Source: a virus
Lineage: Duplodnaviria; Heunggongvirae; Uroviricota; Caudoviricetes
Length of the DNA: 64,000 nucleotides
Direction: 5' to 3' (one strand)
IMG/VR virus record: IMGVR_UViG_3300031992_000025
Location: 33,932-97,931 of that record
Shown: positions 11,916 through 28,281 of the stretch, in pieces
Layout: every line of letters begins with the position of its first letter
How positions within the stretch are numbered: the stretch's first letter is position 1
Notes under the pieces: model-generated
What the model was told of the DNA's origin: nothing
What the model saw: only the letters and a program-made list of their open reading frames with translations
Database searches by the model: none
Position numbers and translations under genes: made by a program

Positions 11916-11917
11916 GT

Positions 11918-12065: not shown

Positions 12066-12154
12066 AGAAGGTTGGGAGAGCTGGTCTATTCCGCTTGTCT
12101 AGAAAACAAGAATGTCGCAAGGCATCATCCGTTCGAATCGGATACCTTCTGCCA
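12066..12154 (+). tRNA. tRNA-Ser(AGA), type II, A34
   Basis: anticodon stem CTTGT/ACAAG loop CTAGAAA, long variable arm; anticodon assignment tentative. Confidence 0.5.
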
Positions 12155-12158
12155 GAAT

Positions 12159-12246
12159 GGAGAGTTGGCCGAGTGGTCGAAGGCGTCTGTCTTGAAAACA
12201 GAAGTGGGGCAACCCACCTGGGGTTCGAATCCCTAACTCTCCGCCA
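12159..12246 (+). tRNA. tRNA-Ser(TGA)
   Basis: anticodon stem TCTGT/ACAGA loop CTTGAAA, long variable arm. Confidence 0.8.
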
Positions 12247-12291
12247 TAAAAACTGTTTACAACTCAGTATAAATGTTGTATAATATAAAAT

Positions 12292-12366
12292 GCGGGTATA
12301 GACAAGTGGTTAAGTCATGCGCCTTTCACGCGTATATCGCCGGTTCGAATCCGACTACCCGTACCA
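12292..12366 (+). tRNA. tRNA-Glu(TTC)
   Basis: anticodon loop CTTTCAC, preceded by promoter TTGTATAATATAAAAT. Confidence 0.7.
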
Positions 12367-12477
12367 AATTAATTTAATATTAGTACCTACTTGCTTAATG
12401 CTAGCAACAAGCAGACAAAAAAGAATGCCAGGTGAAACCGCTTTTACAGGTTTAGGTTGGGAGTAGCCACTTATTAT

Positions 12478-12552
12478 GGGTCATTAGCTCAATGGTAGAG
12501 CGGCCGGCTGTTAACCGGTTGACGACTGTTCGATTTCAGTCATGGCCCGCCA
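12478..12552 (+). tRNA. tRNA-Asn(GTT)
   Basis: anticodon stem GCCGG/CCGGT loop CTGTTAA. Confidence 0.75.
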
Positions 12553-12556
12553 TACA

Positions 12557-12660
12557 TGCGGTTGTTCGAAATTGGTATACGGTAATAGTTAAGCTATTAC
12601 AAGGCACTGGCAAGCATGCTGAAGTCATGTGTTTAGAGGTTCAAGTCCTCTCATCCGCAA
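12557..12660 (+). ncRNA. atypical long tRNA-like element (about 104 nt)
   Basis: T-arm AGAGG-TTCAAGT-CCTCT, acceptor-like GCGGTTG/CATCCGC, extra hairpin GTAATAG-TTAAG-CTATTAC. Confidence 0.3.
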
Positions 12661-12665
12661 CAAAT

Positions 12666-12760
12666 ATGCCCTTGGTCGTCTAATATGGTTAAGACGCGGC
12701 GTTATAAAGATAGAAGTGTACAGCTATCAAGTTGAGATGTGGTTACAATCCACTAAGGGG
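12666..12760 (+). ncRNA. atypical long tRNA-like element (about 95 nt)
   Basis: closing helix GCCCTT/AAGGGGC, T-arm GTGG-TTACAAT-CCAC, no clean anticodon arm. Confidence 0.3.
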
Positions 12761-12770
12761 CAGCTAAAAT

Positions 12771-12845
12771 GGATCGCTCGTATATCAGCTAGTATACTTG
12801 GCTGTCTACCATGGGAGGAGGGTTCGATTCCCTCGCGGTCCGCCA
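12771..12845 (+). tRNA. tRNA-Asp(GTC)
   Basis: anticodon loop CTGTCTA (one stem mismatch), acceptor GGATCGC/GCGGTCC. Confidence 0.55.
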
Positions 12846-12847
12846 AA

Positions 12848-12931
12848 AGAGCCTATACTTATTTCTTAATGGTTTTTGAAGGTTCGATTCCTTCATTACC
12901 CGCTTTGGGTGATGATATTAGTTAGGCCAAA
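12848..12931 (+). repeat. bipartite bulged-helix motif copy 4 enclosing a permuted tRNA minihelix
   Basis: AGAGCCTATACTTATTTCT + T-arm GAAGG-TTCGATT-CCTTC + acceptor 3' ATTACCC-G + CTTT + complementary 5' strand GGGTGAT + AGTTAGGCCAA. Confidence 0.65.
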
Positions 12932-12982
12932 GTTTATTTAGAAAGGAGAAAGCTTATGTAATTGTTAAAGGAGGACATAACG

Positions 12983-13234
12983 ATGAGTTATAGTCGAAAA
13001 CAATTTGATAAGCAAAAGCTAAAAAAGCTTGCAAAAAATAGCTGTAATGGCTGGAAAGGTGGCGCATATTATAGTCGCTATTTAGGCCATTATGTTCGTT
13101 GGTGGAAAAGTAAAGGTAGGAATAGTAGATATGCTTACTATAAAAAATTCTATCGCAAACGAATGAGAAGATTTGCAAACAAAAATGGTTGGTATTCTAA
13201 AAAAGAGTTCGATTTAATTTGGACTTGTTGGTAA
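12983..13234 (+). CDS. small basic Arg/Lys/Tyr/Trp-rich protein
   Basis: RBS AAAGGAGGACATAACG-ATG; 83 aa, highly basic. Confidence 0.4.
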   Translation: MSYSRKQFDKQKLKKLAKNSCNGWKGGAYYSRYLGHYVRWWKSKGRNSRYAYYKKFYRKRMRRFANKNGWYSKKEFDLIWTCW

Positions 13235-13239
13235 AATTA

Positions 13240-13253
13240 TTGTATAATATAAT
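13240..13253 (+). promoter_or_regulatory. extended -10 promoter TTGTATAATATAAT
   Basis: drives ncRNA candidate plus tRNA-Met cluster. Confidence 0.55.
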
Positions 13254-13254
13254 A

Positions 13255-13537
13255 GAGCTTACTTAACTGTTGGCTTAGAAGCAGCCATCATATAATGAGT
13301 GACCAACAGAACGTAAGGTGGTGCATCACTGAAATGAAGCGTCCCTAAATTACTGGATGAGAAATGGGACGTAAAACTGTCGGGAGTCAATAAAAATCTA
13401 TAATTTGGTAAGGGTGGTCAGAGTACCATTCTTAACTAAGAGCGTGCTGTAGGCACAGTAAATGCAGTATAATCAATGTTATAGAGTGCCCTAAGAGTCT
13501 TTGGCGTAGTAGCACATAAGTAAGTTCTTTATAACAT
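13255..13537 (+). ncRNA. candidate structured ncRNA (about 280 nt) transcribed from TTGTATAATATAAT promoter
   Basis: ORF-free, GC-richer than surroundings, directly upstream of tRNA-Met. Confidence 0.35.
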
Positions 13538-13613
13538 TGCGGGGTGCTAGCAGCGGTAGCTAACTGGGCTCATAACCCAGAGGTCGTAGGTTCGATTCCT
13601 ACCCCCGCGACCA
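13538..13613 (+). tRNA. tRNA-Met(CAT), initiator-like
   Basis: anticodon stem CTGGG/CCCAG (three G-C pairs next to loop) loop CTCATAA. Confidence 0.7.
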
Positions 13614-13617
13614 ATAT

Positions 13618-13732
13618 TGCATGATAGTCGAGTGGAAGAGACGACCGCATACATAAGCGGTGGACACAGCTGAAAGTAAATTCTAGATAGGAGTAAGCTA
13701 GAGCGGAGGTTCGATTCCTTCTCATGCGACCA
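13618..13732 (+). ncRNA. atypical 115-nt tRNA-like with 8-nt anticodon-type loop and about 45-nt extra arm
   Basis: acceptor TGCATGA/TCATGCG-A-CCA, T-arm GGAGG-TTCGATT-CCTTC, stem ACCGC/GCGGT with loop ATACATAA. Confidence 0.35.
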
Positions 13733-13734
13733 GA

Positions 13735-14010
13735 GGCAGGTTTTCATCGATTTTAGAGCCTCGCACATAAGAAAATCGATAGATAGACGGACTATGTACA
13801 AGATATGTCTAATCTAAAAAAGGAAAGGTTGTACACCAGAAATTTGGTCGGCTAGTTGGCGTAAACCTAGCAATAGGAGCGTTTGCAACAGACCCTCAAT
13901 AACTGCAGTGAGAGGGCAAGCACGAGCTTACAAGAAGAGACTGCGACGGATGAAATATTCCTAGAGCTCTTGAGCTGAGAGCACAAGGTTCACTGGGCAA
14001 AGAACAAAAC
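13735..14010 (+). ncRNA. candidate structured ncRNA (about 275 nt)
   Basis: ORF-free, 9-bp hairpin ATCGATTTT/AAAATCGAT with loop AGAGCCTCGCACATAAG. Confidence 0.3.
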
Positions 14011-14012
14011 AC

Positions 14013-14089
14013 GGACCGTTGGTGTAGTGGCCTTGCATGCTTCTCTGTCACGGAAGAGATCACGAGTTCGAATCTCGTACGGTCCGCCA
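14013..14089 (+). tRNA. tRNA-Asp(GTC)
   Basis: anticodon stem CTTCT/GGAAG loop CTGTCAC, acceptor GGACCGT/ACGGTCC. Confidence 0.75.
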
Positions 14090-14094
14090 TAGTT

Positions 14095-14202
14095 AGAGCC
14101 AATACTTATTTCTTAGCGAGGTAGCTCAGAGGTTAGAGCAGCAGATATTAATCTGAAGGTCGTAGGTTCAAGTCCTTCCCTTGCCAGGCCTAGTTTGGCC
14201 GA
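14095..14202 (+). repeat. bipartite bulged-helix motif copy 5 enclosing an anticodon-less tRNA-like unit
   Basis: AGAGCCAATACTTATTTCT ... GTTTGGCC (GCCAA/TTGGC covariation); insert 14115-14186 has acceptor, D-arm, T-arm and hairpin CAGAT-ATTA-ATCTG instead of anticodon loop. Confidence 0.65.
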
Positions 14203-14205
14203 TCT

Positions 14206-14282
14206 GGCTGGGTGGCCAAGCTGGTTAAGGCACAAAGCTCATACCTTTGGGATCGTCAGTTCAAATCTGACCCCAGCTACCA
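14206..14282 (+). tRNA. tRNA-Met/Ile2(CAT), elongator-type
   Basis: anticodon stem CAAAG/CTTTG loop CTCATAC. Confidence 0.7.
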
Positions 14283-14285
14283 TTT

Positions 14286-14363
14286 AGAGCTTATACTTAT
14301 TTCTTGAATGCTGTGGTTCGAATCCACCTTGCCTGTGGGGAGCGGAAAGTAGTTAAGCCAAAT
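14286..14363 (+). repeat. bipartite bulged-helix motif copy 6 enclosing tRNA 3'-fragment
   Basis: AGAGCTTATACTTATTTCT ... AGTTAAGCCAAAT (GCTTA/TAAGC covariation); insert has T-arm GTGG-TTCGAAT-CCAC. Confidence 0.65.
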
Positions 14364-14365
14364 AC

Positions 14366-14441
14366 GCACTCTTAACTCAACTGGGAGAGTGCTACCCTTA
14401 CAAGGTAGAAGTTGTAGGTCCGAGTCCTACAGAGTGCACCA
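14366..14441 (+). tRNA. tRNA-Val(TAC)
   Basis: anticodon stem CTACC/GGTAG loop CTTACAA. Confidence 0.8.
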
Positions 14442-14581
14442 TGGCATGTATGCAATTAGAAAACGCAACCTGCCGGTAAAGTAGGCGCTCCGAGTAGTCT
14501 CGAAGTAGGAGCTTTGTGGAATATTGCTAAATCGAGACTTTAGTAACAATATTCTAGGTGTAATTCCCACCATGCCAACCA
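14442..14581 (+). ncRNA. 140-nt tRNA-like RNA (acceptor TGGCATG/CATGCCA-A-CCA) with large internal insertion
   Basis: 7-bp terminal helix plus ACCA; T-loop-like GGTG-TAATTCC-CACC. Confidence 0.3.
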
Positions 14582-14585
14582 ATTT

Positions 14586-14660
14586 GCAGACGTAGGACAA
14601 TGGTTAGTCCATCGCCTTGCCAAGGCGAATATACGGGTTCGATTCCCGCCGTCTGCTCCA
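14586..14660 (+). tRNA. tRNA-Gly(GCC)
   Basis: anticodon stem TCGCC/GGCGA loop TTGCCAA. Confidence 0.7.
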
Positions 14661-14731
14661 CCAGGACAGATAAAGATTAGTTTCTTTATTAGGTTCTAAG
14701 GCTGGACAAATCGATAAAACCAGCCAGTTAT

Positions 14732-14806
14732 GCGGGTGTCGTCCAACGGTCAGGGCCTCTGCCTTCCAAGCAGAAGATACCGGTTCGATTCCGGCCACCC
14801 GCTCCA
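14732..14806 (+). tRNA. tRNA-Gly(TCC)
   Basis: anticodon stem TCTGC/GCAGA loop CTTCCAA. Confidence 0.75.
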
Positions 14807-14834
14807 TTAGCAGTATTTAAAAGGAGAAAAAACA

Positions 14835-14930
14835 ATGAAAACAATGAAACTCAGTCGTCTAAGTTGTCGAAGCTGTAAAGCTTGTTTTCGTTGTCTCAGT
14901 ATAAATACCGCGTTAGCTCAGCTGGATTAG
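14835..14930 (+). CDS. Cys-rich micro-ORF (31 aa, C-x2-C-x2-C-x2-C) reading into tRNA-Arg
   Basis: strong RBS AAAAGGAGAAAAAACA-ATG. Confidence 0.25.
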   Translation: MKTMKLSRLSCRSCKACFRCLSINTALAQLD

Positions 14931-14984
14931 AGCATTTGGCTACGAACCAAAAGGTCGAGGGTCCGAATCCTTCACGCGGTGCCA
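14907..14984 (+). tRNA. tRNA-Arg(ACG)
   Basis: anticodon stem TTTGG/CCAAA loop CTACGAA. Confidence 0.75.
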
Positions 14985-14985
14985 A

Positions 14986-15060
14986 GCTTTGGTAGCCAAG
15001 TGGTTAAGGCTTCGGTCTGCAACACCGACATCGTGGGTTCGAATCCCACCCAAAGCTCCA
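14986..15060 (+). tRNA. tRNA-Cys(GCA)
   Basis: anticodon stem TCGGT/ACCGA loop CTGCAAC. Confidence 0.8.
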
Positions 15061-15095
15061 AAATCTAGCTTTTTATGTTGTATAATATAATAGTT

Positions 15096-15173
15096 CCTCC
15101 CGTAGCTTAGTCAGGTTAAAGCGAACGCCTTATAAGCGTTAGATCGGTGGTTCAAATCCACCCAGGAGGACCA
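15096..15173 (+). tRNA. tRNA-Ile(TAT)
   Basis: anticodon stem AACGC/GCGTT loop CTTATAA; preceded by promoter TTGTATAATATAAT. Confidence 0.6.
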
Positions 15174-15248
15174 TCAAGCTAGTTATTTGCCTGTCAGAAG
15201 CCCTGTTAGAGGAAGCTGGGCTTATAATTAGCTTATTTTAATAAAGAG

Positions 15249-15845
15249 GTGCTTATGGAAATTAGATTTGTTGATGAAAGCAAAGAAGCCACTGGTAAAG
15301 TAAAAGAGGCACAAGAAGCATTAGATGAGCTCATTGATAAAAAGTCTGGTGAAGCTAAGGAAAATCCAGATTATTTAGCATTAATGGCAAAATATAAAAA
15401 AAGCTTAACTAATATTAATAAAGATGCTTGCGGCAGTCCTTGGGAATGGAGTTGGGGCTTAGACTATTTTGTTGAATTTCTTCGTTTTATGCAAGAATAT
15501 TATAAATTAGGCATTAATGTTTGGGCAATGGAGAGACGAGATGAAGATCCTAAAAAATATAAAAATTATCCAACTAGATATGAGAGTATTTCTAAAGCTC
15601 TTAGCTACTATGATAAGTGGCAAAATTTAGAAGAAGAATATATTACAGTAATTGATCACCCAGAGACACGAAAAACACATGAAAATGATGATGGAACAAT
15701 TACTGTTGATGATCTTGGCTTTCATTGTGAATATAAATTTGGTTCTGCTAAGAAAACATATAGAAAACTTCATAAGGATCAAAAGAAATATAAAAAGTTA
15801 TTTTTTAAAACTGTAATGAACTATTTAGAAGAATGGTGGGATTAA
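15249..15845 (+). CDS. hypothetical protein
   Basis: RBS AAAGAGGTGCTT-ATG. Confidence 0.5.
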   Translation: MLMEIRFVDESKEATGKVKEAQEALDELIDKKSGEAKENPDYLALMAKYKKSLTNINKDACGSPWEWSWGLDYFVEFLRFMQEYYKLGINVWAMERRDEDPKKYKNYPTRYESISKALSYYDKWQNLEEEYITVIDHPETRKTHENDDGTITVDDLGFHCEYKFGSAKKTYRKLHKDQKKYKKLFFKTVMNYLEEWWD

Positions 15846-15883
15846 TTAAGTCTCATTGAAAATCTCACTGAAGAAAACTTGCT

Positions 15884-15971
15884 GGAGGCATGGAGTAATG
15901 GTATCTCATCACCCTGCTAAGGTGACCATCGGGCAACTGATGTCCGCGTTCGAGTCGCGGTGCCTCCGCCA
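15884..15971 (+). tRNA. tRNA-Ser(GCT)
   Basis: anticodon stem TCACC/GGTGA loop CTGCTAA, long variable arm. Confidence 0.8.
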
Positions 15972-15973
15972 TA

Positions 15974-16306
15974 TTGAAAGGAAATTTTATGAAAGCATAT
16001 TTTATAGCAACTGCAAATGATTGTAAAAAAGATGAGCTTGGTTGGTTAGACTGGGGTAAATCTTTACGTGTTGTTGGTTTCTTTGAAGACATGGAAACTG
16101 CAAAAAAAGCAGTAGAAGAAAATTGGGGAGATATATATGAAGATGGTTATTATAAATATGCTATTATAGAAGAAAGAGAAGATGGTCTATATTCTCATTG
16201 TGAAAGCCCATTATTCTATAAGTGGGAAGGCACAATAAAAGATGGTGGCTATAAACAAATAGAAAGGCCAGAAGCTACAAAAGGCTTTTGTAATTTCACA
16301 ATCTAG
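15974..16306 (+). CDS. hypothetical protein
   Basis: RBS GAAAGGAAATTTT-ATG. Confidence 0.5.
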   Translation: MKGNFMKAYFIATANDCKKDELGWLDWGKSLRVVGFFEDMETAKKAVEENWGDIYEDGYYKYAIIEEREDGLYSHCESPLFYKWEGTIKDGGYKQIERPEATKGFCNFTI

Positions 16307-16308
16307 TT

Positions 16309-16392
16309 GCCCAGATGGTGGAATGGTAGACACCCGTGGCTTAGAACCACGTGCCGAAAGGCGTGCAGGTTCAAATCCTGTTCTGGGCACCA
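16309..16392 (+). tRNA. tRNA-Leu(TAG)
   Basis: anticodon stem CGTGG/CCACG loop CTTAGAA, long variable arm. Confidence 0.8.
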
Positions 16393-16399
16393 TTATTCT

Positions 16400-16485
16400 G
16401 CGCGAGTGATGAAATGGTAGACATGTGAGTCTAAGAAGCTCATGCCAGCAATGGTGTGTGGGTTCAAGTCCCACCTTGCGCACCA
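16400..16485 (+). tRNA. tRNA-Leu(AAG), type II, A34
   Basis: anticodon stem TGAGT/GCTCA loop CTAAGAA, long variable arm; anticodon assignment tentative. Confidence 0.5.
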
Positions 16486-16528
16486 TATTTATTTAAATTA
16501 AATTGTATAATATATAGAGGATTATTAT

Positions 16529-16858
16529 ATGTATACTTTACAAGAATTAATTGAAAAAGGCTATATTGATAGCATTAAAACTGATGGGACTCATCTTGGT
16601 GATGGTTATACCATTGTTGTAAAATTAAGTAGATATTCTATTGGCAGAATTACTATTGATGTTGGTATTGATGAATATTTAGATGATGCAGTTAGACTTA
16701 TTAATGGTATTATCAATATTCAAGAAGAATTAAATAAGGAAGCTACATCAAAAGAAAGTCCAATAGTTAGAAAAGCACCTGCAGAAGAATTAAAAGAAGT
16801 ACTTACTGGAACAGAAATTAAAGAAACAAAAATTAGCCCAGAGGATTATGCTGAATAA
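16529..16858 (+). CDS. hypothetical protein
   Basis: RBS AGAGGATTATTAT-ATG after promoter TTGTATAATATAT. Confidence 0.5.
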   Translation: MYTLQELIEKGYIDSIKTDGTHLGDGYTIVVKLSRYSIGRITIDVGIDEYLDDAVRLINGIINIQEELNKEATSKESPIVRKAPAEELKEVLTGTEIKETKISPEDYAE

Positions 16859-17031
16859 TGAAACATATAATTAAAGATGGTATTTATTATTTATATTCAG
16901 ATACTGATGCTGAACTAATGTCAATTACACTTACCAGTGAACCAGAAAATCAAGTTATTATAAAAACAGAGAATGAAGTTTATGCTGGTCCCGTAAAATT
17001 TATTAAATTTTCTGAAGATATAACGACAAAA
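16858..17031 (+). CDS. small hypothetical protein (57 aa)
   Basis: ATG overlapping previous stop (TAATGA). Confidence 0.35.
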
Positions 17032-17039
17032 TAAGCCGT

Positions 17040-17345
17040 ATATTATATACAGGGGTGTAAGTTATGTAGTAGACCCGCGGTCTTCAACCTCGAAAGTTGC
17101 TATGAATGACTACGAAACTGGTGCCTTATATTGGAAACATTATAAGTGCAGGTGATGATATCGGTGAACCCTGTCAAATGGGAATACCGAGGGAACGAAA
17201 GGCCCGTAGAGAGTAGATAATCACCCAGCTAAACAGAAATGTATGCTGAAGATGTACTCCAGACCACAAACAGAAATGGTGGTGAAAACCATAGTGGTAA
17301 GCAAAACCGGGAAACTAGGTGCAAGCCCTAGCACCCCTGCCAATA
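17040..17345 (+). ncRNA. candidate structured ncRNA (about 300 nt)
   Basis: ORF-free, GC-richer; contains ACAGAAATGG...AAAACCGGGAAACTAGG segments; 3' end ...GCACCCCTGCCAA. Confidence 0.35.
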
Positions 17346-17355
17346 TTATTATTTT

Positions 17356-17574
17356 ATGGAAGAATCTTATAGTTTATTATTAGAAATGACTATTGTTGGA
17401 ATAATGTGTGGACTTGTAGTAGCATTCTGCATATTCTTCTGTATAAAATATCATAAAGATAAAAGTTATGAAAAAGCCAGAGCAATTATCTTAGGTGGAA
17501 CTATTGGATTATCTCTACTAACTACAATATTTGAGATAGTTTGGTTCTGTATGTATCTTGGCTTACCAGTTTAG
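17356..17574 (+). CDS. small membrane protein
   Basis: two predicted TM helices. Confidence 0.4.
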   Translation: MEESYSLLLEMTIVGIMCGLVVAFCIFFCIKYHKDKSYEKARAIILGGTIGLSLLTTIFEIVWFCMYLGLPV

Positions 17575-17724
17575 GAGAGAATTATGTTAGCTATTGAACT
17601 ATTTGCAATATATGGAATTGGATTAGGAATTTTAAACCTACTTACTCTTGGATTAATACTATTCCATAAAATTAAAAAAGATTAATATTAGCATATAATT
17701 ATTTGCTAAATTAAAATGAGTTTT

Positions 17725-17797
17725 GAGCCGCCTCGCTCAGAAAACGCCCCCTCTGATCAAGGAAATAGATCAGGTTAAAGGTGGCGGCCTTTTTTAT
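17725..17797 (+). promoter_or_regulatory. long-range hairpin plus U-tract (terminator or regulatory RNA) upstream of secreted-protein operon
   Basis: GAGCCGCC ... GGCGGCC-TTTTTTAT with internal hairpin CTGATC..GATCAG. Confidence 0.35.
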
Positions 17798-21179: not shown

Positions 21180-24130
21180 ATATAGTTAGTTACAGAGTAA
21201 TCTGTTTCTATAAGAGCTTAAAAAGCACCTGCACTATTAGGAACTCCCGAAAAGCCGAAAGTGAGGCTGTCGAAAGGCTAAGCGACTATAAATAAAATTT
21301 ACGTTAACATTAAGACCCGAAGAGTACTCACATCGACGGGCACTGCCGAAAGGCACTTAAAGGTGGGTTGGGGTTAAAGTTGTCTACCAATGTGAGAAAA
21401 ACAACTGCTTCCTTGGCTAATTTAGTCCGGTAGGAAGTTAATATAGTTTAGGTGGCCCAGGAGGTATTTAATTTCCCTCTCCCCAGAAAACTTGAGGTCA
21501 CCAGCCTATAATCAGGTATAGCTATGGCGCCTGGAATACTATCATTCTCGATAGTATAGTTTAAGAGGCTGCGTAATGCCGCCAACCCGTTGAGGTTATC
21601 TCTGGCGGGTTATGTAGAGCCGGAGTATTTACCGACTGGACCTGAGCAAATTGTCCACCTACTTAATTAAACTGCTCATTTTTCTTAAAAATCGATCGCA
21701 CTTCAGGGCACTTCCGCCTGTCCTAAGCATGACGTTAAACTGCAAATAATTTTTAGGAGGCGCTTATGAAGTATTACGTATTAGATGGCGAAATTAATAC
21801 TCGCCCTATTAAGGAAAAAATGTTCCGTTCAAGAGCTGCCGCTGAAAAAGCATTAGAAGTTATTCTCTATAGAGAGGACCTTCAAGTTCAAGACGACAGA
21901 TTTCCTTCAAAGCACACCGAAGAATTCGTGTGTGACAGATGCTCTAGATTCTTCATTCGTAGAATTGTCTACGGTGAGTAGAGCCTAGGTCAAGACACAA
22001 ACTAATTGGCCCAGTAATGGGAAAATGGAAAATCCGAAATCGTGGATTATACAGAGACTAGCGATCAAAGTTAGTTAGAAAGTCTTGATTTCTTAGTTAG
22101 TTACACGTTCGCGTGTTTCTATAAAACTTCCTGAAAATCTTTGGATAAAAACCAAAGCGAATGACTGCACAAGTTGTATTGAGTGCTTTCACGAGAAAAG
22201 GTACACTGGGATGCATGGGAAGTAAAATGTGATGCACCAGTAATTGTCGGTGGCGATATAAAACCGTTCAGCAGAGATACAACTCTTGACTGATAAAGGC
22301 CTTGTTGATGGGTGAGGTTAGTTACCTCTTCAGGTAGAAATGAATCAACTAATCTGCTCTCTTGCCGACTATTTTGGGTTAGACAGGCAAGTATAACAAA
22401 AGTTATAGTCTTAGCCCATGAGTTTATTAATTACATAGTAATATGTGATTATATATGAACGGCGCTTGCTTAGGCCTTAACAACTTAAGCTGGTGAGCAT
22501 TCAAGACAACTACGTTAAGTGAGTATTCTGAGGCATAATGAAATCTCACATATTCAGCGCTGATTGCCGACAAGTCATATGACTGGACATGAGCTTGTCC
22601 TTGAAAAGGCACAACGGGGTTTGGTGAGATGTCCACAACCAGTTATTAAAATCACTTGGGCAAAAATAAGCATAAGCCCATTAACAACGAGGGCACGTTG
22701 TAAAATAACGAGTTTAGCCGAGTCTTATAGACGGTATGGAGTCTGATATAAACCCATGCAACCCACATTCTTTATAGGAGGTATGGAACGCTAGAATAAA
22801 TACTTTGGGATCTAGCAATCTGGCCGACCTAATGGGTAGTTCAAGGTGTAACTCCTTGATTGGTCTCAAAAAGCCCACGTAGCAGTAACCAGGGCTAATA
22901 CTAAGACGTCAAAACGTGAAAGAGCCTGCTACACTGACATAGGATTCATTCCGAGTTGTGACCGCTTGAAAGCTGGCGGGAATGCACTGTGATGCACGTC
23001 AAAAATTCTCACAGACCTGCACAAGGCTAAGTGCTAAAAAATGTCCAGGCTTTTAGAAGGAAAACTATAAACCTCCAGGTGGCTCCTGGGTAAACTGTAA
23101 GAAACAAGCTGCCTTTAAACAGTATAAAGATTAGGGGTGCAGAACTATCGCTGAAGTTAGCCTGTAGGCAAAGCGTCAATATGATGTGTCAAAGTTGGTT
23201 GGTAAGAGCCTAATTCCGTTAATCGCAAGGAATGACTGCAATAATATACTTTGGTTTGGAATGACACAGTAATGAACCTAAAAACCCAACATGACAGTGC
23301 ATTATTTAATCGGATTTTGTCACCATGTAAATAATAATGCTTCGGGAAAGTGAACGAACTAGGAGCCCCCTCGCGCATTAAGTTGTATGCCAACGGCTGA
23401 GCATTAGAAATAATGTGAGGTGCATATTATTGCCGAGCATAGAGGAGATTGCCGATACCTCGACCAGGATATGGAAAGCAAAGTAGGGATGTGGATGTTC
23501 ACCAAGAAACTCTTTTAGATAAAATCGTGATTGTGGGTTTGGAGTTTCAAAGGTAATTATGCCTAATTAAGTAGATTAAAGAGTTTGGTCTCTGGGACGG
23601 CCATAGTGCTTAATTGAAAATAATAAATAGTTCCACCACCCAGTACTGAATGTTGTTTGATTAATTGTGATTGCCGCTGGACATGACGAAGGAGAGACAG
23701 CAATTAATTAAGTAAGTGGACTATCTCAGCCTATTAAACGCTAGTTTAGTTTAAAGCTATTAATTAATAGGTAATTAACAGAACTTAGTATTCTGTATAA
23801 AGAGATTAAAGCCGGGGAACTCCAGGACAGGTTTTATGAGTATCTTGCTAAGAAGAGAAAATAATGTAAAAAGGCCTGAGTAAGTTTAATCACCTGCAAT
23901 TTGGGGTTGAGCCCAGTTAGAAAACGTTAGTCAAAGTTAACGCTCTAACAATGCTTATTAATTTATTTGCCTGAGGCTATCTCACGCAGATTAATAAGAA
24001 GAGCCCAAGAAAATAGGGACCGAAAGGAAAAATATCCAACTTTGAACTCTTTTATATAAGAATAGTCTTAGCTAGTGAGTAGAGGGCTAAGATGAGGCAA
24101 AGCATGCGTGTGATAAGCCATTAAACTCTA
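21180..24130 (+). ncRNA. roughly 3-kb ORF-free, GC-enriched block: candidate giant structured ncRNA(s)
   Basis: promoter TGCTGTATAATATAT at 21170; stops in all six frames throughout; GC clearly above the about 30% genome background; only one short ORF (21766-21981) with RBS; ends at terminator near 24160. Confidence 0.45.
21766..21981 (+). CDS. small ORF (71 aa) embedded in the noncoding block
   Basis: RBS AGGAGGCGCTT-ATG; CDRCSRFF motif. Confidence 0.3.
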   Translation: MKYYVLDGEINTRPIKEKMFRSRAAAEKALEVILYREDLQVQDDRFPSKHTEEFVCDRCSRFFIRRIVYGE

Positions 24131-24157
24131 TTTTTTTATTTACTAGTAAAAATTTTA

Positions 24158-24188
24158 AAGGCCTATTTATATAGGTCTTTTTATTTTA
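24158..24188 (+). terminator. rho-independent terminator
   Basis: AAAGGCCTATTTATATAGGTCTTTTTATTTT. Confidence 0.55.
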
Positions 24189-24209
24189 TTTATTGTATAA
24201 TATTATAAT

Positions 24210-24395
24210 ATGGTTTTCAATTATAGAGTTATTTGGACAGATATAAATAAAAATAGGCAGGATTTTGTAGATATGGATTCACAAAATATTGCACTTTTTA
24301 TAGCAAAACAAAAAGTGAGACAAGGTATGCAAAATGTTATTATTCAACTTACACTAGTTGGAGACTATGATAAGCAAGAGGAGATAGAAGTATAA
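24210..24395 (+). CDS. hypothetical protein
   Basis: follows promoter TTGTATAATATTATAAT. Confidence 0.4.
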   Translation: MVFNYRVIWTDINKNRQDFVDMDSQNIALFIAKQKVRQGMQNVIIQLTLVGDYDKQEEIEV

Positions 24396-24396
24396 T

Positions 24397-24708
24397 ATGA
24401 AATTTATTAAAAAACCAATTCCAATTGATGCAGTTAAATGCATTAAAGAAAATGAAGATGAAATTATTAGTCTTTTAGAGTCAGGAACTACAGAATGGGA
24501 AAAAGTATTAGATGATGATTATAATGTTATTGGATTTAATATTCATTCTTGGGAAGGTGTAGATCCAGTCTATTATGATTTTAGTAAAAATAAAAATAGT
24601 GGCGGAAAAGCTTACTGGGTTATTAAAGGGTTAAAAGGTGAGTGCTACCCTTGTGTAGCAGATGATGCTGAAGATGCTCCTCTTGGGTACGAGCTCTTTA
24701 AAGAATAA
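24397..24708 (+). CDS. hypothetical protein
   Basis: translationally coupled (TAATATG). Confidence 0.4.
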   Translation: MKFIKKPIPIDAVKCIKENEDEIISLLESGTTEWEKVLDDDYNVIGFNIHSWEGVDPVYYDFSKNKNSGGKAYWVIKGLKGECYPCVADDAEDAPLGYELFKE

Positions 24709-24822
24709 TTAAAAAAATATTTACAAAAAATAAAAAATATCGTATAATATTAATGTGAATGAAAAAACATTCGCTAAATTAAATAAGTGAATTGCAAACT
24801 AATATATAACAAAGCAATTCAC

Positions 24823-24895
24823 AAGAGCCTATACTTATTTCTACAAATAAAAATGAAGATCTAAGAACAAAGCTAGTTAGGCCAAAGTAAAAATT
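24823..24895 (+). repeat. bipartite bulged-helix motif copy 7
   Basis: AGAGCCTATACTTATTTCT ... AGTTAGGCCAAAG; preceded by 9-bp hairpin GTGAATTGC..GCAATTCAC. Confidence 0.65.
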
Positions 24896-25035
24896 TTAAG
24901 AAAAAGGAGAAAAGAAGCATGTTAAATTTAGTTGCTAAGACAGTTAAACCTACAGCAACAGCCAGACCAGCAGTCTTGGTAAATTTTGATATGCTTACAA
25001 ACTTCTAAAATCTTAAAAACCGAAATTAAAAGATT

Positions 25036-25066
25036 CCGCAGGCGTTTGTAAGCGTCTGCGGTTTTT
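25036..25066 (+). terminator. rho-independent terminator
   Basis: CCGCAGGCG-TTTGTAA-GCGTCTGCGG-TTTTT. Confidence 0.65.
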
Positions 25067-25072
25067 ATTTCT

Positions 25073-25150
25073 GGGGGCGCATGTTCTAAGGGCAAGCGAG
25101 ACTGCTTTGCAAGCAGACTGTTGTGGGTTCGATTCCCTTCGTTTCCACCA
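25073..25150 (+). tRNA. tRNA-Ala(TGC)-like
   Basis: acceptor GGGGGCG/CGTTTCC with G3-U70 wobble, anticodon loop TTTGCAA, enlarged D region. Confidence 0.5.
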
Positions 25151-25203
25151 ATATGTAATAATATTTGCAGCGCAAGTTGTGTCCCAAATATTTGCTAAAT
25201 TAA

Positions 25204-25217
25204 TTGTATAATATAAT
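25204..25217 (+). promoter_or_regulatory. extended -10 promoter TTGTATAATATAAT
   Basis: upstream of HNH endonuclease gene. Confidence 0.55.
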
Positions 25218-25229
25218 GAGGCATTTATT

Positions 25230-25835
25230 ATGAGAAAAACAATTGATGATATTAAAAAACAAATTTGGGAGAATTCATTGCATACCTGTGAATATTTAAG
25301 TGGTGAAGCAAAACCAGGTAAAAAAATTCATGTAAGATGCATAATTCATAATGAAGAGTTTGATGTAAGTTATGATACTATTCGTAAATCTACTAGAAAA
25401 CATCATATTTGTCCTAAATGTAAAGCTGAAGATGATGCAAAAGATAAGGTAAAACTTATTTGCGATTATTGTGGTAAAGAGTATTATGTTGCAAAAAGTA
25501 AGTCTACTAAATCAGATTATCATTTCTGTTGTAGAGCTTGTAAAGATTCTGCACAAAAGATTAATTCTGGAGAAAAATTTAATGAATTAAGACCAGATCA
25601 TTATGGAACTGGAACAACAACTTACAGAGATGCAGCATTTATAGCTTATCCACATAAATGTGCAATTTGTGGTTGGGCTGAGGATGAAGATGTGCTTGAA
25701 GTTCATCATATTGATGAAAATAGAGCAAATGCAAGTTTAGACAATTTAATTATATTATGTCCAACTTGTCATAGAAAATTATCTATTCATAAATATTATC
25801 TTACTGATGATAGAAAAAGCATTATTAAAAAATAA
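25230..25835 (+). CDS. HNH homing endonuclease with Cys-rich zinc-binding N-terminal region
   Basis: EVHHIDENRANASLDNLIILCPTCH (HNH motif); multiple CxxC pairs. Confidence 0.65.
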   Translation: MRKTIDDIKKQIWENSLHTCEYLSGEAKPGKKIHVRCIIHNEEFDVSYDTIRKSTRKHHICPKCKAEDDAKDKVKLICDYCGKEYYVAKSKSTKSDYHFCCRACKDSAQKINSGEKFNELRPDHYGTGTTTYRDAAFIAYPHKCAICGWAEDEDVLEVHHIDENRANASLDNLIILCPTCHRKLSIHKYYLTDDRKSIIKK

Positions 25836-25846
25836 TGTAAATTTAT

Positions 25847-25923
25847 GGGCTATTAGTTCAGTCTAGGAGAACGCCCGCCCTGCAAGCGGGAGGTCATCGG
25901 AGCGGAGCCGATATGGTCCACCA
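25847..25923 (+). tRNA. tRNA-Ala(TGC)-like with atypical T-loop
   Basis: acceptor GGGCTAT/ATGGTCC incl. G3-U70, anticodon stem CCCGC/GCGGG loop CCTGCAA, T-loop AGCGGAG. Confidence 0.4.
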
Positions 25924-25927
25924 AATT

Positions 25928-26001
25928 GCCCCTGTAGTACAATGGTAGTACAGTTGACTTGTAATCATCCGATGGCCGTTCGATTCGACCCTGGGGCACC
26001 A
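25928..26001 (+). tRNA. tRNA-Thr(TGT)
   Basis: acceptor GCCCCTG/CTGGGGC, anticodon loop CTTGTAA. Confidence 0.7.
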
Positions 26002-26005
26002 AAAT

Positions 26006-26081
26006 GGGGCTGTAGCTCAATTGGGAGAGCGCCGCGTTAGCATCGCGGAGGTTGCGGGATCGTTCCCCGTTAGTTCCACCA
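26006..26081 (+). tRNA. tRNA-Ala(AGC), A34
   Basis: anticodon stem CCGCG/CGCGG loop TTAGCAT; acceptor GGGGCTG/TAGTTCC with G3-U70. Confidence 0.5.
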
Positions 26082-26166
26082 ATTCATGCCATGGAAGGAA
26101 AACCATATAAACCCTTACAGCTTCGTTAATATCAGACGTAGGTATTAAAGAGTTAAGCTGAATTAT

Positions 26167-26243
26167 CCGGAGTTAGTTCAGCTTGGTAGAACACCTGATT
26201 TGGGATCAGGGGGTCGTGGGTTCGAATCCCGCATTCCGGACCA
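26167..26243 (+). tRNA. tRNA-Pro(TGG)
   Basis: anticodon stem CCTGA/TCAGG loop TTTGGGA, acceptor CCGGAGT/ATTCCGG. Confidence 0.75.
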
Positions 26244-26247
26244 TTAT

Positions 26248-26370
26248 AGAACCTGTGCTTATTTCTAATAGGGCAAGCAGGTTGTCGCTGGTTCGAATCC
26301 AGCCTTCTCCACCATTAATTGGGGAAGTAGCTCAGTTGGTAGAGCACCCGCAAAATATTAGCCAGGTCAT
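26248..26370 (+). repeat. bipartite bulged-helix motif copy 8 enclosing permuted tRNA halves (3' half, linker, 5' half)
   Basis: AGAACCTGTGCTTATTTCT + T-arm GCTGG-TTCGAAT-CCAGC + CTTCTCC-A-CCA (ends 26314) + TTAATT + GGGGAAG-TA-GCTC-AGTTGGTA-GAGC-A-CCCGC (26321-26351) + partner GCCAGGT (26361-26367); acceptor strands GGGGAAG/CTTCTCC fully complementary (G3-U70). Confidence 0.65.
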
Positions 26371-26373
26371 ATT

Positions 26374-26449
26374 GCACCTTTAGCTCAGTTGGGAGAGCAT
26401 ATCCTTGACGTGGATAGGGTCGTAGGTTCGAGCCCTGCAAGGTGCACCA
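26374..26449 (+). tRNA. tRNA-Val(GAC)
   Basis: anticodon stem TATCC/GGATA loop TTGACGT. Confidence 0.75.
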
Positions 26450-26453
26450 TTAT

Positions 26454-26531
26454 GCTCCTCTAGCCCAACTGGCAGAGGCGGTAAGCTCAAACCTTACTTA
26501 TGTCTCGGTTCGAATCCGAGGGGGAGTACCA
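26454..26531 (+). tRNA. tRNA with anticodon CAA but short (type I) variable arm
   Basis: anticodon stem GTAAG/CTTAC loop CTCAAAC; acceptor GCTCCTC/GGGGAGT with G-U pairs. Confidence 0.45.
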
Positions 26532-26576
26532 AAAATGCAAAATTTGCAAAAATGTTATACTAAAGGAGAAAAAGTT

Positions 26577-26657
26577 ATGATGCAAATGAACAGAAAAAAT
26601 ATCAAGAGCAGAAAAACCAAAAGATTTGGTTCATTTAGTCATGGCTTAATTCATTAA
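26577..26657 (+). CDS. micro-ORF (26 aa, basic)
   Basis: RBS AAAGGAGAAAAAGTT-ATG; followed by terminator. Confidence 0.25.
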   Translation: MMQMNRKNIKSRKTKRFGSFSHGLIH

Positions 26658-26690
26658 GATTATAAAGGACGTTAGTTAACGTAATATAAT

Positions 26691-26720
26691 GCCGAGTGGT
26701 TAAGCCGCCCGGCATTTTTT
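26691..26720 (+). terminator. rho-independent terminator
   Basis: GCCGAGTGG-TTAAG-CCGCCCGGC-ATTTTTT. Confidence 0.55.
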
Positions 26721-26863
26721 CTAGGATTACGTTAGCGCGACGGACAAGAATTACTTATGCGAATTCCTTCTTAGAAAAAAATCTCCTTGTCTTCTAATTG
26801 AATAAGATATAGACCTCCTAAGTCTATGATCAGAGTTTAAATCTCTGCAAGGAGTCCATATAT

Positions 26864-26938
26864 ACCGCCATAGTACAACGGATAGTACAGTAGCCTTCTA
26901 AGCTTCTGATCCGGGTTCGATTCCTGGTGGCGGTGCCA
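26864..26938 (+). tRNA. tRNA-Arg(TCT)
   Basis: anticodon loop CTTCTAA, acceptor ACCGCCA/TGGCGGT. Confidence 0.7.
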
Positions 26939-26940
26939 TT

Positions 26941-27010
26941 AGAGCCTATGCTTATTTCTAGCTCAACGAGAGCGTCAAACATTTAATTTGAAGGTATAGC
27001 TAGGCCAAAA
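26941..27010 (+). repeat. bipartite bulged-helix motif copy 9
   Basis: AGAGCCTATGCTTATTTCT ... TAGCTAGGCCAAAA (AC to GC paired by GT to GC change). Confidence 0.65.
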
Positions 27011-27014
27011 TTAT

Positions 27015-27092
27015 GCACCGTCGGTCGCAAGGTGTGACACTCGACTTTTAATCGAGGTATCAGGATGGGTTCGATTCCCTCACGGTGCACCA
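27015..27092 (+). tRNA. tRNA-Lys(TTT)
   Basis: anticodon stem CTCGA/TCGAG loop CTTTTAA. Confidence 0.75.
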
Positions 27093-27096
27093 ATAT

Positions 27097-27171
27097 GCAC
27101 CCTTAGCCAAGCGGTATGGCCTACGACTTTTAATCGTATTATCAGGTGTTCGACTCACCTAGGGTGTACCA
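27097..27171 (+). tRNA. tRNA-Lys(TTT), second copy
   Basis: anticodon stem TACGA/TCGTA loop CTTTTAA. Confidence 0.75.
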
Positions 27172-27174
27172 GTA

Positions 27175-27252
27175 TGCTCCGTTGGCGCAATTAGGTAGCG
27201 CAAGATACTCTTAATATCTGGGTTACAGGTTCGATTCCTGTACGGAGCACCA
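27175..27252 (+). tRNA. tRNA-Lys(CTT)
   Basis: anticodon stem AGATA/TATCT loop CTCTTAA. Confidence 0.8.
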
Positions 27253-27310
27253 ATAAAATATTTTGCATTTGACTTAAAATTATTTGCTAAATTAATTGAG
27301 GTTCAAAATT

Positions 27311-28123
27311 ATGGCAAATTATATAAGTCACACTGCTTGAAATAAAGGCTTAACCAAAGAAACCGATAGTCGTTTAGCAAAAACAGCTTTATTACAAAGT
27401 AAAGTTAAAAAAGGTAAACCAAATCATCCACAAACTGCTGAAACAAGAGCAAAAATATCAGCTGCTAGAAAAAAATACATAGCAGAGCATCCAGATCAAG
27501 TTCCATTTAAAATGCACCATTCATCTAAAGAAAGTTTTCCAGAAAGATATTTTAGACTTTGACTTAAAAAAGAAAAATTATTAGAAGCACAAGAACTACA
27601 GATTGATAGATATACATTAGATTTTGCTTGGCCAGATAAAAAGATTTATTTAGAAATTGATGGAAATCAGCATAAGTTAGATTGAATGCAAGAGCATGAT
27701 AAAATTAGAACTGATTATTTAAATACTTTAGGTTGAACATGTATTGGTAGAATAGATTGATCTTGATATAAAGCTTTGTGCACAAAAGAAAAGCATAAAT
27801 ATTTACAAAACATAAAAGCAGCAATTGAGCAAGCTAGTTTTATAGAAAAATTTATATCAAAAAAAGACTTAGCTTTACAAAAACGTCAAAAGCTTATTGA
27901 AGCTGGATTTGTTATGAAAGATGGCAGAACAGCTCCATGAATGTTATCTAATAATGAATGGCAAAGACGTTTACAGCTAATACTAGATAGTAATATAGAC
28001 TTAACAAAATTTGGCTGGAAAGAACAAGTACAAAAAATAACGAATTTAACTCGTAGCCAATTAAACGATACAATAGAGCATTTTCCAGAACATTTTACAA
28101 AAATCTATATTAGAGGCAAATAA
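27311..28123 (+). CDS. homing endonuclease-like protein: NUMOD3-type DNA-binding motifs plus DUF559/Vsr-like PD-(D/E)XK nuclease domain (about 10 in-frame TGA)
   Basis: HTAWNKGLTKETDSRLAKTA and KPNHPQTAETRAKISAARKK (NUMOD3-like); DFAWPDKKIYLEIDGNQH...LGWTCIGRIDW; TGA codons fall at conserved Trp-like positions (GW motif). Confidence 0.65.
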
Positions 28124-28205
28124 ATTATTGTATAATATATTGTGGTTGAGATATGAGTTTTGGTAGTTTTGTGCCACGCATGCGGAAATAAAAACTACTA
28201 TATAT

Positions 28206-28281
28206 GCCGACTTAGCTCAGCTGTTAGAGCAATTCACTAGTAATGAATAGGTCGGGGGTTAGAATCCCTCAGTCGGCACCA
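28206..28281 (+). tRNA. tRNA-Thr(AGT), A34
   Basis: anticodon stem ATTCA/TGAAT loop CTAGTAA, acceptor GCCGACT/AGTCGGC, T-loop TTAGAAT. Confidence 0.6.

Follow-up and report, generated by a model that had tools for sequence, protein, structure and literature searches.

Can tRNAs whose anticodon begins with adenosine (A34) serve a bacteriophage in several codon boxes at once, and does their presence imply an enzyme that turns this adenosine into inosine (I34)? The question is raised by a 64,000-nucleotide stretch of DNA from a virus of the Caudoviricetes (positions 33,932 to 97,931 of IMG/VR virus record IMGVR_UViG_3300031992_000025; hereafter the window, always taken at its full length). In this window an island of tRNA genes includes tRNA-Ser(AGA), tRNA-Leu(AAG), tRNA-Ala(AGC), tRNA-Thr(AGU, written AGT when the gene is meant) and tRNA-Arg(ACG). 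The A-starting tRNAs are the most conspicuous forbidden anticodon class in prokaryotes, the reason for their absence being still unclear according to recent work, and a 2026 preprint states that they are absent from bacteriophages (bioRxiv 10.64898/2026.05.15.725136). The five genes of the window are real, are conserved among related phages with compensatory changes, replace the G34 isoacceptors and co-vary with a depletion of C-ending codons. The reading preferred here, with a probability of about 0.55, is that pairs of A34 and U34 tRNAs decode the dominant NNU and NNA codons of the phage, with I34 in the Arg and probably in the Leu species and an unmodified A34 in the species for Ser, Thr and Ala.

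The five A34 genes (Table 1) are confirmed as tRNA genes with the expected identity elements. An earlier note on this DNA had proposed their anticodons from hand folding; ARAGORN returns exactly the same coordinates and loop registers and assigns A34 in each case, so that the loop registration is not off by one. A register error is ruled out by ARAGORN together with the Rfam tRNA model (gathering score 29 bits), which gives 52.0 bits to Leu-AAG, 52.4 to Ala-AGC, 69.5 to Thr-AGT and 61.1 to Arg-ACG. Ser-AGA has no match to the Rfam tRNA model even when searched alone, and two other class II tRNAs of the window are likewise missed; its ARAGORN cloverleaf is canonical, with a 7-bp acceptor stem, U8, A14, G18G19, U33, the T-loop TTCGAAT, G73 and CCA. 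The ARAGORN cloverleaves of all five genes are canonical and CCA is encoded in each, while for Ala-AGC and Thr-AGT the minimum-free-energy fold is the cloverleaf itself. Under the general rules of amino-acid identity, the elements present are G3:U70 in the Ala tRNA, a long variable arm with G73 in the Ser tRNA, a long arm with A73 in the Leu tRNA, and A20 with C35 in the Arg tRNA. The acceptor stem of Thr-AGT begins with G1:C72 and C2:G71, and its U19:A56 pair is a tertiary covariation. An assembly artefact is ruled out for Arg-ACG and Leu-AAG by a contig of an independent assembly (L086, ENA ERZ27257202; L numbers denote the contigs and loci compared here) that is 100% identical over this stretch; contig L087 (Logan SRR9006730) is 100% identical over the adjoining genes at 17.2-19.7 kb. 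For the Ser, Ala and Thr genes, the conserved orthologs seen in related contigs speak against such an artefact.

Two anchors, an S-adenosylmethionine (SAM) methyltransferase (Table 1) and a flotillin, brought in related phage contigs as long as 273 kb. The Thg1-like (484 loci in IMG/VR) and Pnkp-like anchors led to homologous loci with tRNA arrays rarely nearby, and the HNH, HAD_SAK_2 and 18464-19399 proteins to few or no relatives. The sequence covered amounts to 64 kb of a phage genome that is probably longer than 150 kb and to at most 20 kb of each relative. The 66.6-kb contig L298 has all five genes, Ser-AGA, Arg-ACG, Leu-AAG, Ala-AGC and Thr-AGT, arranged as in the window, and the 273-kb contig L301 carries Ala-AGC, Thr-AGT, Arg-ACG and Leu-AAG. 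Ala-AGC and Thr-AGT occur together in L231, L232, L233 and L432, Thr-AGT is the A34 tRNA of L225 and of L433, and L226 holds two Ala-AGC genes, Pro-AGG and Arg-ACG.

The A34 orthologs are 70-91% identical among these relatives, and their anticodon loops are invariant although the sequences differ by 16-30% elsewhere. The Ser-AGA ortholog of L298 is 72% identical, keeps its loop and has compensatory changes in three stems (acceptor, anticodon and T); in this gene and in the Leu-AAG orthologs (L298 and L301) stem pairs are swapped while the loops CUAGAAA and CUAAGAA remain unchanged. For Thr-AGT (window, L225, L231, L298 and L301), 9 of 21 pairs are compensatory, 98% of the alignment cells are paired and A34 is invariant across the five sequences. 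For the Ala orthologs the corresponding values are 10 of 21 stem pairs and 100% of the cells, and G3:U70 is invariant in the six orthologs. None of 500 shuffles reaches the observed values for Thr or Ala, and controls with a slid alignment collapse. Because the stems covary while the anticodon loops stay fixed, this comparative evidence indicates that the A34 genes are functional and under purifying selection, the wobble A included. It is very improbable that AT mutation pressure simply turned G34 into A34 in redundant genes that are neutral or decaying. G to A is the favoured direction of change in a genome of 32% GC, and several degenerate tRNA-like genes do occur in the window, but the invariance of A34 and of the whole loop, the maintenance of stems by compensatory changes, the intact CCA ends and identity elements, and the lack of any G34 copy left in the window to do the job all speak against decay.

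The place taken by these tRNAs is that of the usual bacterial G34 isoacceptors: ARAGORN finds no tRNA with a GGA, GAG, GGC or GGU anticodon in the window. Each A34 tRNA has a U34 partner, and Thr-UGU and Ala-UGC lie within the same cluster. G34 is kept in the window for Val, Gly, Ile and the two-codon boxes, and Pro is served by UGG only. Among the relatives both states of the wobble base are found. In L303 and L311 the slot of Ala-AGC is occupied by an Ala-GGC gene that is 82% identical to it and has the same odd T-loop; because of this common slot, identity and T-loop, Ala-AGC and Ala-GGC are regarded as states of one gene. In the threonine box one gene has instead replaced another: Thr-GGT (L230, L296, L302, L303, L311 and L226) has a backbone unlike that of Thr-AGT (about 60-66% identity) and is located on the opposite side of Thr-CGT.

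Codon usage follows the wobble base. Across 38 open reading frames (ORFs) of the window, or 11,340 codons, C-ending codons make up 3-10% and G-ending codons 0-2% in the five A34 boxes, and nearly all codons are U- or A-ending. The ratio NNU/(NNU+NNC) is 0.95 for Ser, 0.92 for Leu, 0.90 for Ala, 0.90 for Thr and 0.89 for Arg, as against 0.79 in the two-codon G34 boxes of the window (p = 3e-24) and 0.68 in the same five boxes of the putative host described below (p = 5e-67). Between relatives, ACU/(ACU+ACC) is 0.87 in the Thr-AGT phages versus 0.75 in the Thr-GGT phages (p = 9e-8), and still 0.85 versus 0.75 when the window is left out of the former group (p = 6e-4). In L302, one of the Thr-GGT phages, the U-bias of Ser (0.95) and Leu (0.86) is kept, and that of Thr (0.65) and Ala (0.69) is lower.

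These observations can be accommodated by a simple division of labor. In each of the five boxes (Ser UCN, Leu CUN, Ala GCN, Thr ACN and Arg CGN) the phage would supply a pair of tRNAs, of which the A34 species, in the place of the usual G34 species, would pair with NNU codons in Watson-Crick fashion (A:U), leaving NNA and NNG to the U34 species. The role in NNU decoding is proposed because U- and A-ending codons are nearly the only ones that phage genes use for these boxes. Arg-ACG, and probably Leu-AAG, would be deaminated to I34 by the TadA of the host, while Ser-AGA, Thr-AGU and Ala-AGC would probably be poor TadA substrates and stay unmodified, if published enzyme specificity holds for this host. 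The known substrate motifs are YUACGAA for E. coli TadA and YUAMGRA for that of S. pyogenes, which also edits Leu-AAG (PMC11472039). The Arg loop CUACGAA is the canonical motif and the Leu loop CUAAGAA fits YUAMGRA; the loops of Ser (CUAGAAA), Thr (CUAGUAA) and Ala (UUAGCAU) fit neither. In the latter three tRNAs G35 is present and G36 absent, and we know of no bacterial TadA that accepts G35.

The earlier note had taken the A34 tRNAs to imply a deaminase of expanded specificity, a conclusion that does not follow, since unmodified A34 works in four-codon boxes (PMC8072771, PMC11066159, PMC10454642, 10.64898/2026.05.15.725136). Oenococcus oeni does not convert its Thr and Ser A34 tRNAs to I34, although its TadA edits the Leu species (PMC8072771). 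The Mycoplasma Thr-AGU is unmodified, and an unmodified A34 reads chiefly U-ending codons (PMC11066159). Engineered Ser-AGA, Thr-AGU and Pro-AGG of E. coli are unmodified and are neutral, tolerated or beneficial (10.64898/2026.05.15.725136), and B. subtilis without tadA still translates CGN codons (PMC10454642). By analogy with O. oeni and the engineered E. coli strains, the Ser, Thr and Ala A34 tRNAs of the phage are probably unmodified.

The eukaryotic ADAT2/ADAT3 enzyme makes I34 in Thr, Ala, Pro, Ser, Leu, Ile, Val and Arg tRNAs, and the main alternative is that all five A34 tRNAs, together with Pro-AGG of the relatives, are likewise converted to I34 by an enzyme of relaxed specificity. 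Such an enzyme might be supplied by the rumen Bacilli host, as a variant TadA, or be a deaminase whose gene lies in another part of the phage genome. The A34 set of the family as a whole (Thr, Ala, Pro, Ser, Leu and Arg, with Pro contributed by a relative) comprises six of the eight eukaryotic substrates. As in eukaryotes, the G34 isoacceptors are absent for the A34 boxes, and the Ala loop UUAGCAU is that of eukaryotic tRNA-Ala(AGC). Moreover, the range of Firmicute TadA has already widened to Leu-AAG (PMC11472039), A34 becomes I34 in nearly all known cases (PMC11066159), and most of the phage genome lies outside the DNA seen. The resemblance to the eukaryotic system stops, however, at several points that make this alternative unlikely: Ile-GAU and Val-GAC are retained and Pro is read by UGG only, the tRNAs are of bacterial type with an encoded CCA, neither G35 nor the O. 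oeni precedent favors editing of the Ser and Thr species, and C-ending codons are not tolerated but strongly depleted, although I34 reads them well.

Nor has a suitable enzyme come to light. No H[AC]E...PCxxC motif is found by regular expression in any of the six frames of the window, and a tblastn search of the window with an E. coli TadA sequence gives no match; the statement of the earlier note that the window shows no such deaminase motif is thereby borne out, and no ADAT-like gene or gene of the cytidine deaminase (CDA) fold is present there. In 2.05 Mb of family loci read with genetic code 4, at most 20 kb per genome, a single CDA-fold ORF occurs (in L050), and it resembles deoxycytidine monophosphate (dCMP) deaminases. 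The available sequence evidence neither calls for expanded inosine editing nor lends it support. A rumen jumbo phage family with eukaryote-like inosine decoding by a not-yet-seen deaminase, one that chooses its substrates independently of their sequence, appears more doubtful still.

A small CDA-fold ORF of 137-147 aa (HAEVD...PCxGC; Pfam dCMP_cyt_deam_1 and MafB19-deam) was noticed in five unrelated IMG/VR contigs (L130:4300-4750, L185:4070-4520, L195:1541-1981, L213:1470-1910 and L208:2265-2723). It lies about 0.1-0.5 kb downstream of tRNA-Thr(AGT) in four of the five, and after the tRNA cluster in L208. As a candidate A34 editor it was set aside as a weak lead, its best matches among solved structures being dCMP deaminases and its occurrence being limited to one or two lineages.

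Several points weigh against decoding by A34 and U34 pairs with a largely unmodified A34, as preferred here. In the window itself, the A34 boxes have a U-bias of 0.909, not significantly higher than the 0.892 of Val plus Ile, which keep G34 (p = 0.14), so that Gly and the two-codon boxes account for the contrast inside the genome. The codon comparison across the family is not phylogenetically independent and partly tracks overall GC (41% in L230). Codon usage cannot separate A34 from I34, as both read NNU, and under AT mutation pressure NNC codons would also become rarer once a preference for C due to G34 was lost. If the U34 partners have a cmo5U-type modification, NNU codons could be within their own reach, and the advantage of an A34 tRNA would then be less evident. 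The modification state of the A34 tRNAs is itself inferred; a deaminase could lie elsewhere in the phage genome, as the window and the loci of the relatives each cover part of a genome; and the host assignment rests on the transfer of one flotillin gene.

Among uncultivated viral contigs, A34 tRNAs other than Arg-ACG are more widespread than the earlier note had supposed in calling them almost absent from phages. A first pattern scan of IMG/VR, which combined a canonical D-arm with the loop YUAGYAW, gave at least 120 stretches, among them at least 109 loci with tRNA-Thr(AGT), representing at least 73 distinct 40-nt cores, and at least six with Ala(AGC). The same stretches also hold at least seven Ser-AGA and at least three Leu-AAG genes, and no Thr-GGT is found among the matches listed. 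A matching scan with AAY as the anticodon yielded 116 stretches, which contain 70 Ile-AAT and 10 Val-AAC genes, some of them in giant-virus metagenome-assembled genomes (MAGs). Among the matches listed in the first scan (AGY anticodons), no stretch has more than three A34 tRNAs of four-codon boxes (L177 has a Ser-ACT call in addition), the 105-kb contig L373 of the AAY scan has four, and the window and L298 have five. The Prevotella phage Lak-A1 (MK250015.1, L223) carries a tRNA-Leu(AAG) and an 82-nt tRNA-His(AUG) call, at 22214-22295 and 22442-22523. In the cultured phages PA5oct, Mineola, Syn19, S-CREM1, Sf-FS3 and Aeh1 the Thr tRNA is UGU, not AGU, and 40-mers of the two commonest IMG/VR Thr-AGT cores have no exact match in the collection searched. 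No paper describing a phage A34 set of this kind was found. The phenomenon is thus a known bacterial one, new in that it is phage-borne, extends to five or six boxes including Ala (and Pro), is conserved in a family and exists there in both A34 and G34 states.

The closest bacterial parallel is offered by Oenococcus oeni and other Lactobacillales, which have Leu-AAG, Thr-AGU and Ser-AGA besides Arg-ACG (PMC8072771, PMC11472039, bioRxiv 10.64898/2026.05.15.725136). The two cases share several A34 tRNAs that replace G34 in four-codon boxes, AT-rich DNA, a bias towards U-ending codons, a Leu loop that fits the widened TadA motif and a Bacilli lineage, which is the likely host class here. They differ in that the present genes are phage-encoded, form a tRNA island and have U34 partners alongside, and that they include Ala-AGC (and Pro-AGG in a relative), for which the surveys consulted name no bacterial genus where it is a constant trait. 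The tRNA-Thr(AGU) of Mycoplasma capricolum, unmodified and functional (PMC11066159), is another A34 Thr tRNA, in a very AT-rich system where UGA means Trp. It belongs, however, to a minimal superwobbling set, whereas here the A34 tRNA is an extra, specialized member of a large set with a U34 partner, and the recoding of TGA is specific to the phage while the putative host uses the standard code. The genomic traits that go with unmodified-A34 decoders, namely a four-fold box, the replacement of G34, AT-richness and a U-ending bias, are all found in the phage. Phage tRNA arrays that compensate for codon usage are likewise large, with anticodons that match phage codons where these differ from host usage; unlike in the usual arrays, the match is reached here by changing the wobble base to A.

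The phage itself departs from the standard genetic code. The frame at 45090-52484 is open over 2464 codons with 13 in-frame TGA and no TAA or TAG, and long frames interrupted only by TGA are seen at 40092-43811, 45111-52484 (within the frame just named), 54675-57848, 57960-60359 and 61181-64000, as well as at 27311-28123 and 29058-29852. The RNA-repair genes and other genes at 2-37 kb have no in-frame TGA. In homologs of the CotH-like part, Trp occupies the columns where the phage has TGA (NK[W]F[W], KW[W], N[W]IADT), and the phage therefore reads TGA as Trp in its late (structural) genes; the reading of TGA as Gly (code 25, with a host from the Candidate Phyla Radiation) is ruled out by the same columns. 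The window holds no suppressor tRNA with a UCA anticodon. Relatives do have such a TGA suppressor (L298:6298-6394, L297:8848-8946 and L310:89-185), so that one is probably encoded elsewhere in the genome of the window phage. The suppressor of the relatives, labelled SeC by ARAGORN, has a Trp-like acceptor, G73-CCA and an extra arm in the variable region. The loop of this arm contains UCCAA, which copies the anticodon loop of tRNA-Trp (CUCCAAA), and the stem of the arm covaries (GGGG/CCCC, CCGG/CCGG, CCGU/GCGG). By mimicking an anticodon, the extra arm may bring TrpRS to a tRNA that no longer has its original anticodon.

Nearly all genes of the window, whose GC content is about 32%, lie on one strand. 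The phage flotillin (SPFH; 31229-32800) shares 84-92% identity with genes on the chromosomes of uncultured rumen MAGs that carry the labels Bacilli, Bacillales or Erysipelotrichaceae; the gene context in these MAGs is clearly bacterial, and their flotillin genes adjoin a tRNA-Ala(CGC). The bacterial contigs concerned have 35-37% GC, the standard code and a codon usage far less U-biased than that of the phage. The host is probably one of the uncultured rumen Bacilli, or the flotillin at least reflects a recent exchange of genes with that lineage; the window belongs to a TGA-to-Trp recoded jumbo phage from the rumen. Features in common with the gut and rumen phages of the Jade, Sapphire and Agate type (Borges et al., bioRxiv 10.1101/2021.08.26.457843) are contigs of 150-270 kb from animal guts, in-frame TGA at conserved Trp positions of structural genes beside other genes in the standard code, a TCA suppressor tRNA (here in the relatives) and a predicted Firmicutes host. 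The tRNA passages of that preprint discuss suppressor tRNAs only and not A34. The likeness is one of traits, no terminase being present within the 64-kb window to place it in a clade. Megablast and blastn searches of the tRNA array against deposited phage genomes gave no close relative, with generic tRNA matches and one 55-nt match to Lak phages as the only hits. Extension beyond the window was not achieved, the Pnkp-like product not being on record and contigs of the same phage elsewhere reaching at most 7.5 kb.

Table 1. Positions of the A34 tRNA genes, their U34 partners and neighbouring features in the window
Feature	Position	Strand	Basis and remarks
Kinase-phosphatase-RNA ligase fusion (Pnkp-like, RnlA-type ligase)	2121..4406	+	RNA-repair context of the island
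tRNA island	10158..28281	+	38 ARAGORN tRNAs in clusters 10158-16485 and 25073-28281
tRNA-Ser(AGA), class II	12066..12154	+	ARAGORN; loop CUAGAAA, G73-CCA
tRNA-Ser(UGA), U34 partner of Ser-AGA	12159..12246	+	ARAGORN, Rfam; 5 nt downstream of Ser-AGA
tRNA-Arg(ACG)	14907..14984	+	ARAGORN, Rfam; loop CUACGAA
tRNA-Leu(UAG), U34 partner of Leu-AAG	16309..16392	+	ARAGORN, Rfam; 7 nt upstream of Leu-AAG
tRNA-Leu(AAG), class II	16400..16485	+	ARAGORN, Rfam; A73, loop CUAAGAA
tRNA-Ala(UGC), U34 partner of Ala-AGC	25073..25150	+	ARAGORN
Homing-endonuclease-type ORFs (HNH, DUF559, GIY-YIG)	25230-25835, 27311-28123, 29043-29852		Between tRNA genes
tRNA-Thr(UGU), U34 partner of Thr-AGT	25928..26001	+	ARAGORN, Rfam
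tRNA-Ala(AGC)	26006..26081	+	ARAGORN, Rfam; G3:U70, loop UUAGCAU, unusual T-loop AUCGUUC
tRNA-Thr(AGU)	28206..28281	+	ARAGORN, Rfam; loop CUAGUAA, U19:A56 replacing G19:C56
Class I SAM methyltransferase	30363..31157	+	Conserved neighbour of tRNA cluster 2 in all relatives
Thg1-like protein (tRNA 5'-end repair or tRNA-His guanylyltransferase family)	32851..33789	+	RNA-repair context

The surroundings of the island bear on a further explanation. Besides the Pnkp-like and Thg1-like genes, an HAD_SAK_2 domain protein and metallophosphatases contribute to an RNA-repair context, and this setting would suit A34 tRNAs that act in counter-defence, as nuclease-resistant stand-ins for host G34 tRNAs cleaved or depleted by host anticodon nucleases during infection; the altered wobble base would then be a means of escape and not of decoding. 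To our knowledge, however, no anticodon nuclease is specific for the G34 tRNAs of Ser, Leu, Ala and Thr. Such a role also does not predict the observed link of the A34 or G34 state with C-ending codon usage, and the phage supplies a whole tRNA set, not the A34 species alone. Even though phage tRNAs with anticodon-loop changes have been proposed to evade tRNA-targeting defenses (PMC10264068), counter-defence is an improbable account of the A34 genes. The SAM methyltransferase, 60-95% identical among relatives, was considered as a tRNA modifier and rejected: NCBIfam, PDB sequence and Foldseek searches (AF2 model with a predicted local distance difference test, pLDDT, of 91) retrieved generic small-molecule O-methyltransferases only, at a template-modelling (TM) score of about 0.5, and gave no support for a link to tRNA.

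The tRNA genes of the island are interspersed with small ORFs and homing endonucleases. Seven in-frame TGA occur in the DUF559 ORF and five in the GIY-YIG ORF, and a DUF559 insertion ahead of Thr-AGT is common to the window, L432 and L433. Rfam adds two tRNA-like matches to the 38 ARAGORN genes, for a total of 38-40. No tRNA-His is found among these 38-40 tRNAs, despite the presence of the Thg1-like gene; His-GUG is found within the array of the relative L226.

Several genes of the array depart from the usual tRNA form. The tRNA-like gene at 14114-14187 (Rfam, 49 bits) has a 6-nt anticodon loop, UAUUAA, and lacks CCA; a 55-nt stretch of it is 91% identical to a Lak megaphage tRNA-Met(CAU), and similar tRNA-like genes with 6-nt loops apparently underlie the 'Phe-AAA' calls in L294 and L307. 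The one at 13618-13729 (Rfam, 31.9 bits) combines an 8-nt loop, AUACAUAA, and a variable region enlarged by an insertion of some 43 nt with a normal T-arm and an ACCA end. An additional tRNA-Ala(UGC)-like gene at 25847-25923 (Rfam, 44.2 bits), missed by ARAGORN, has G3:U70 but also C33 and the non-canonical T-loop AGCGGAG, and a similar gene exists in L226. A long variable arm is a feature of all bacterial Leu tRNAs, and the amino-acid identity of the 'tRNA-Leu(CAA)' at 26454-26531, which is just 78 nt long, lacks such an arm and has A73, is uncertain. The short gene adjoins Val-GAC also in L226, L298, L303, L311 and L432, and short 'Leu' tRNAs recur in unrelated IMG/VR arrays. The Ile(UAU) anticodon, rare in bacteria, is present at 15096-15173, in 17 of the 120 sampled IMG/VR loci listed and in Lak-A1. 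Sub-threshold matches to YrlA (Y RNA-like) at 26280-26348 and 28317-28385 (38.1 and 33.5 bits against a gathering score of 69) lie directly 3' of tRNA genes and may be degenerate tRNA-like modules.

A stretch of about 3 kb between the two clusters (21105-24200) is free of ORFs of at least 80 aa in both genetic codes and has a GC content of 0.36-0.40. Blocks of its DNA are 77-90% identical in L301 and L302, and are better conserved than the neighbouring proteins; a 31-nt motif containing a hairpin recurs at 21183, 22094 and 22424, and no Rfam family matches anywhere in the stretch. It is a candidate for structured RNAs of a new kind.

A phage family thus keeps up to five or six tRNAs of the A34 class, and its sister phages keep the G34 form of at least the orthologous Ala gene. 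The occurrence of A34 and G34 in one backbone is a natural contrast with phylogenetic replication, and it is mirrored in codon usage. Two questions are raised by this contrast: whether an unmodified A34 is faster or more accurate on U-ending codons, and whether inosine editing is wider in bacteria than supposed. If the A34 tRNAs are mostly unmodified, their large-scale natural use would contradict the idea that A34 is intrinsically harmful. If I34 is instead formed on G35 anticodons, a new deaminase specificity would be at work, of interest for TadA-based RNA and DNA base editors, and expanded inosine decoding in these phages would represent an independent prokaryotic origin of ADAT-like multi-substrate wobble editing.

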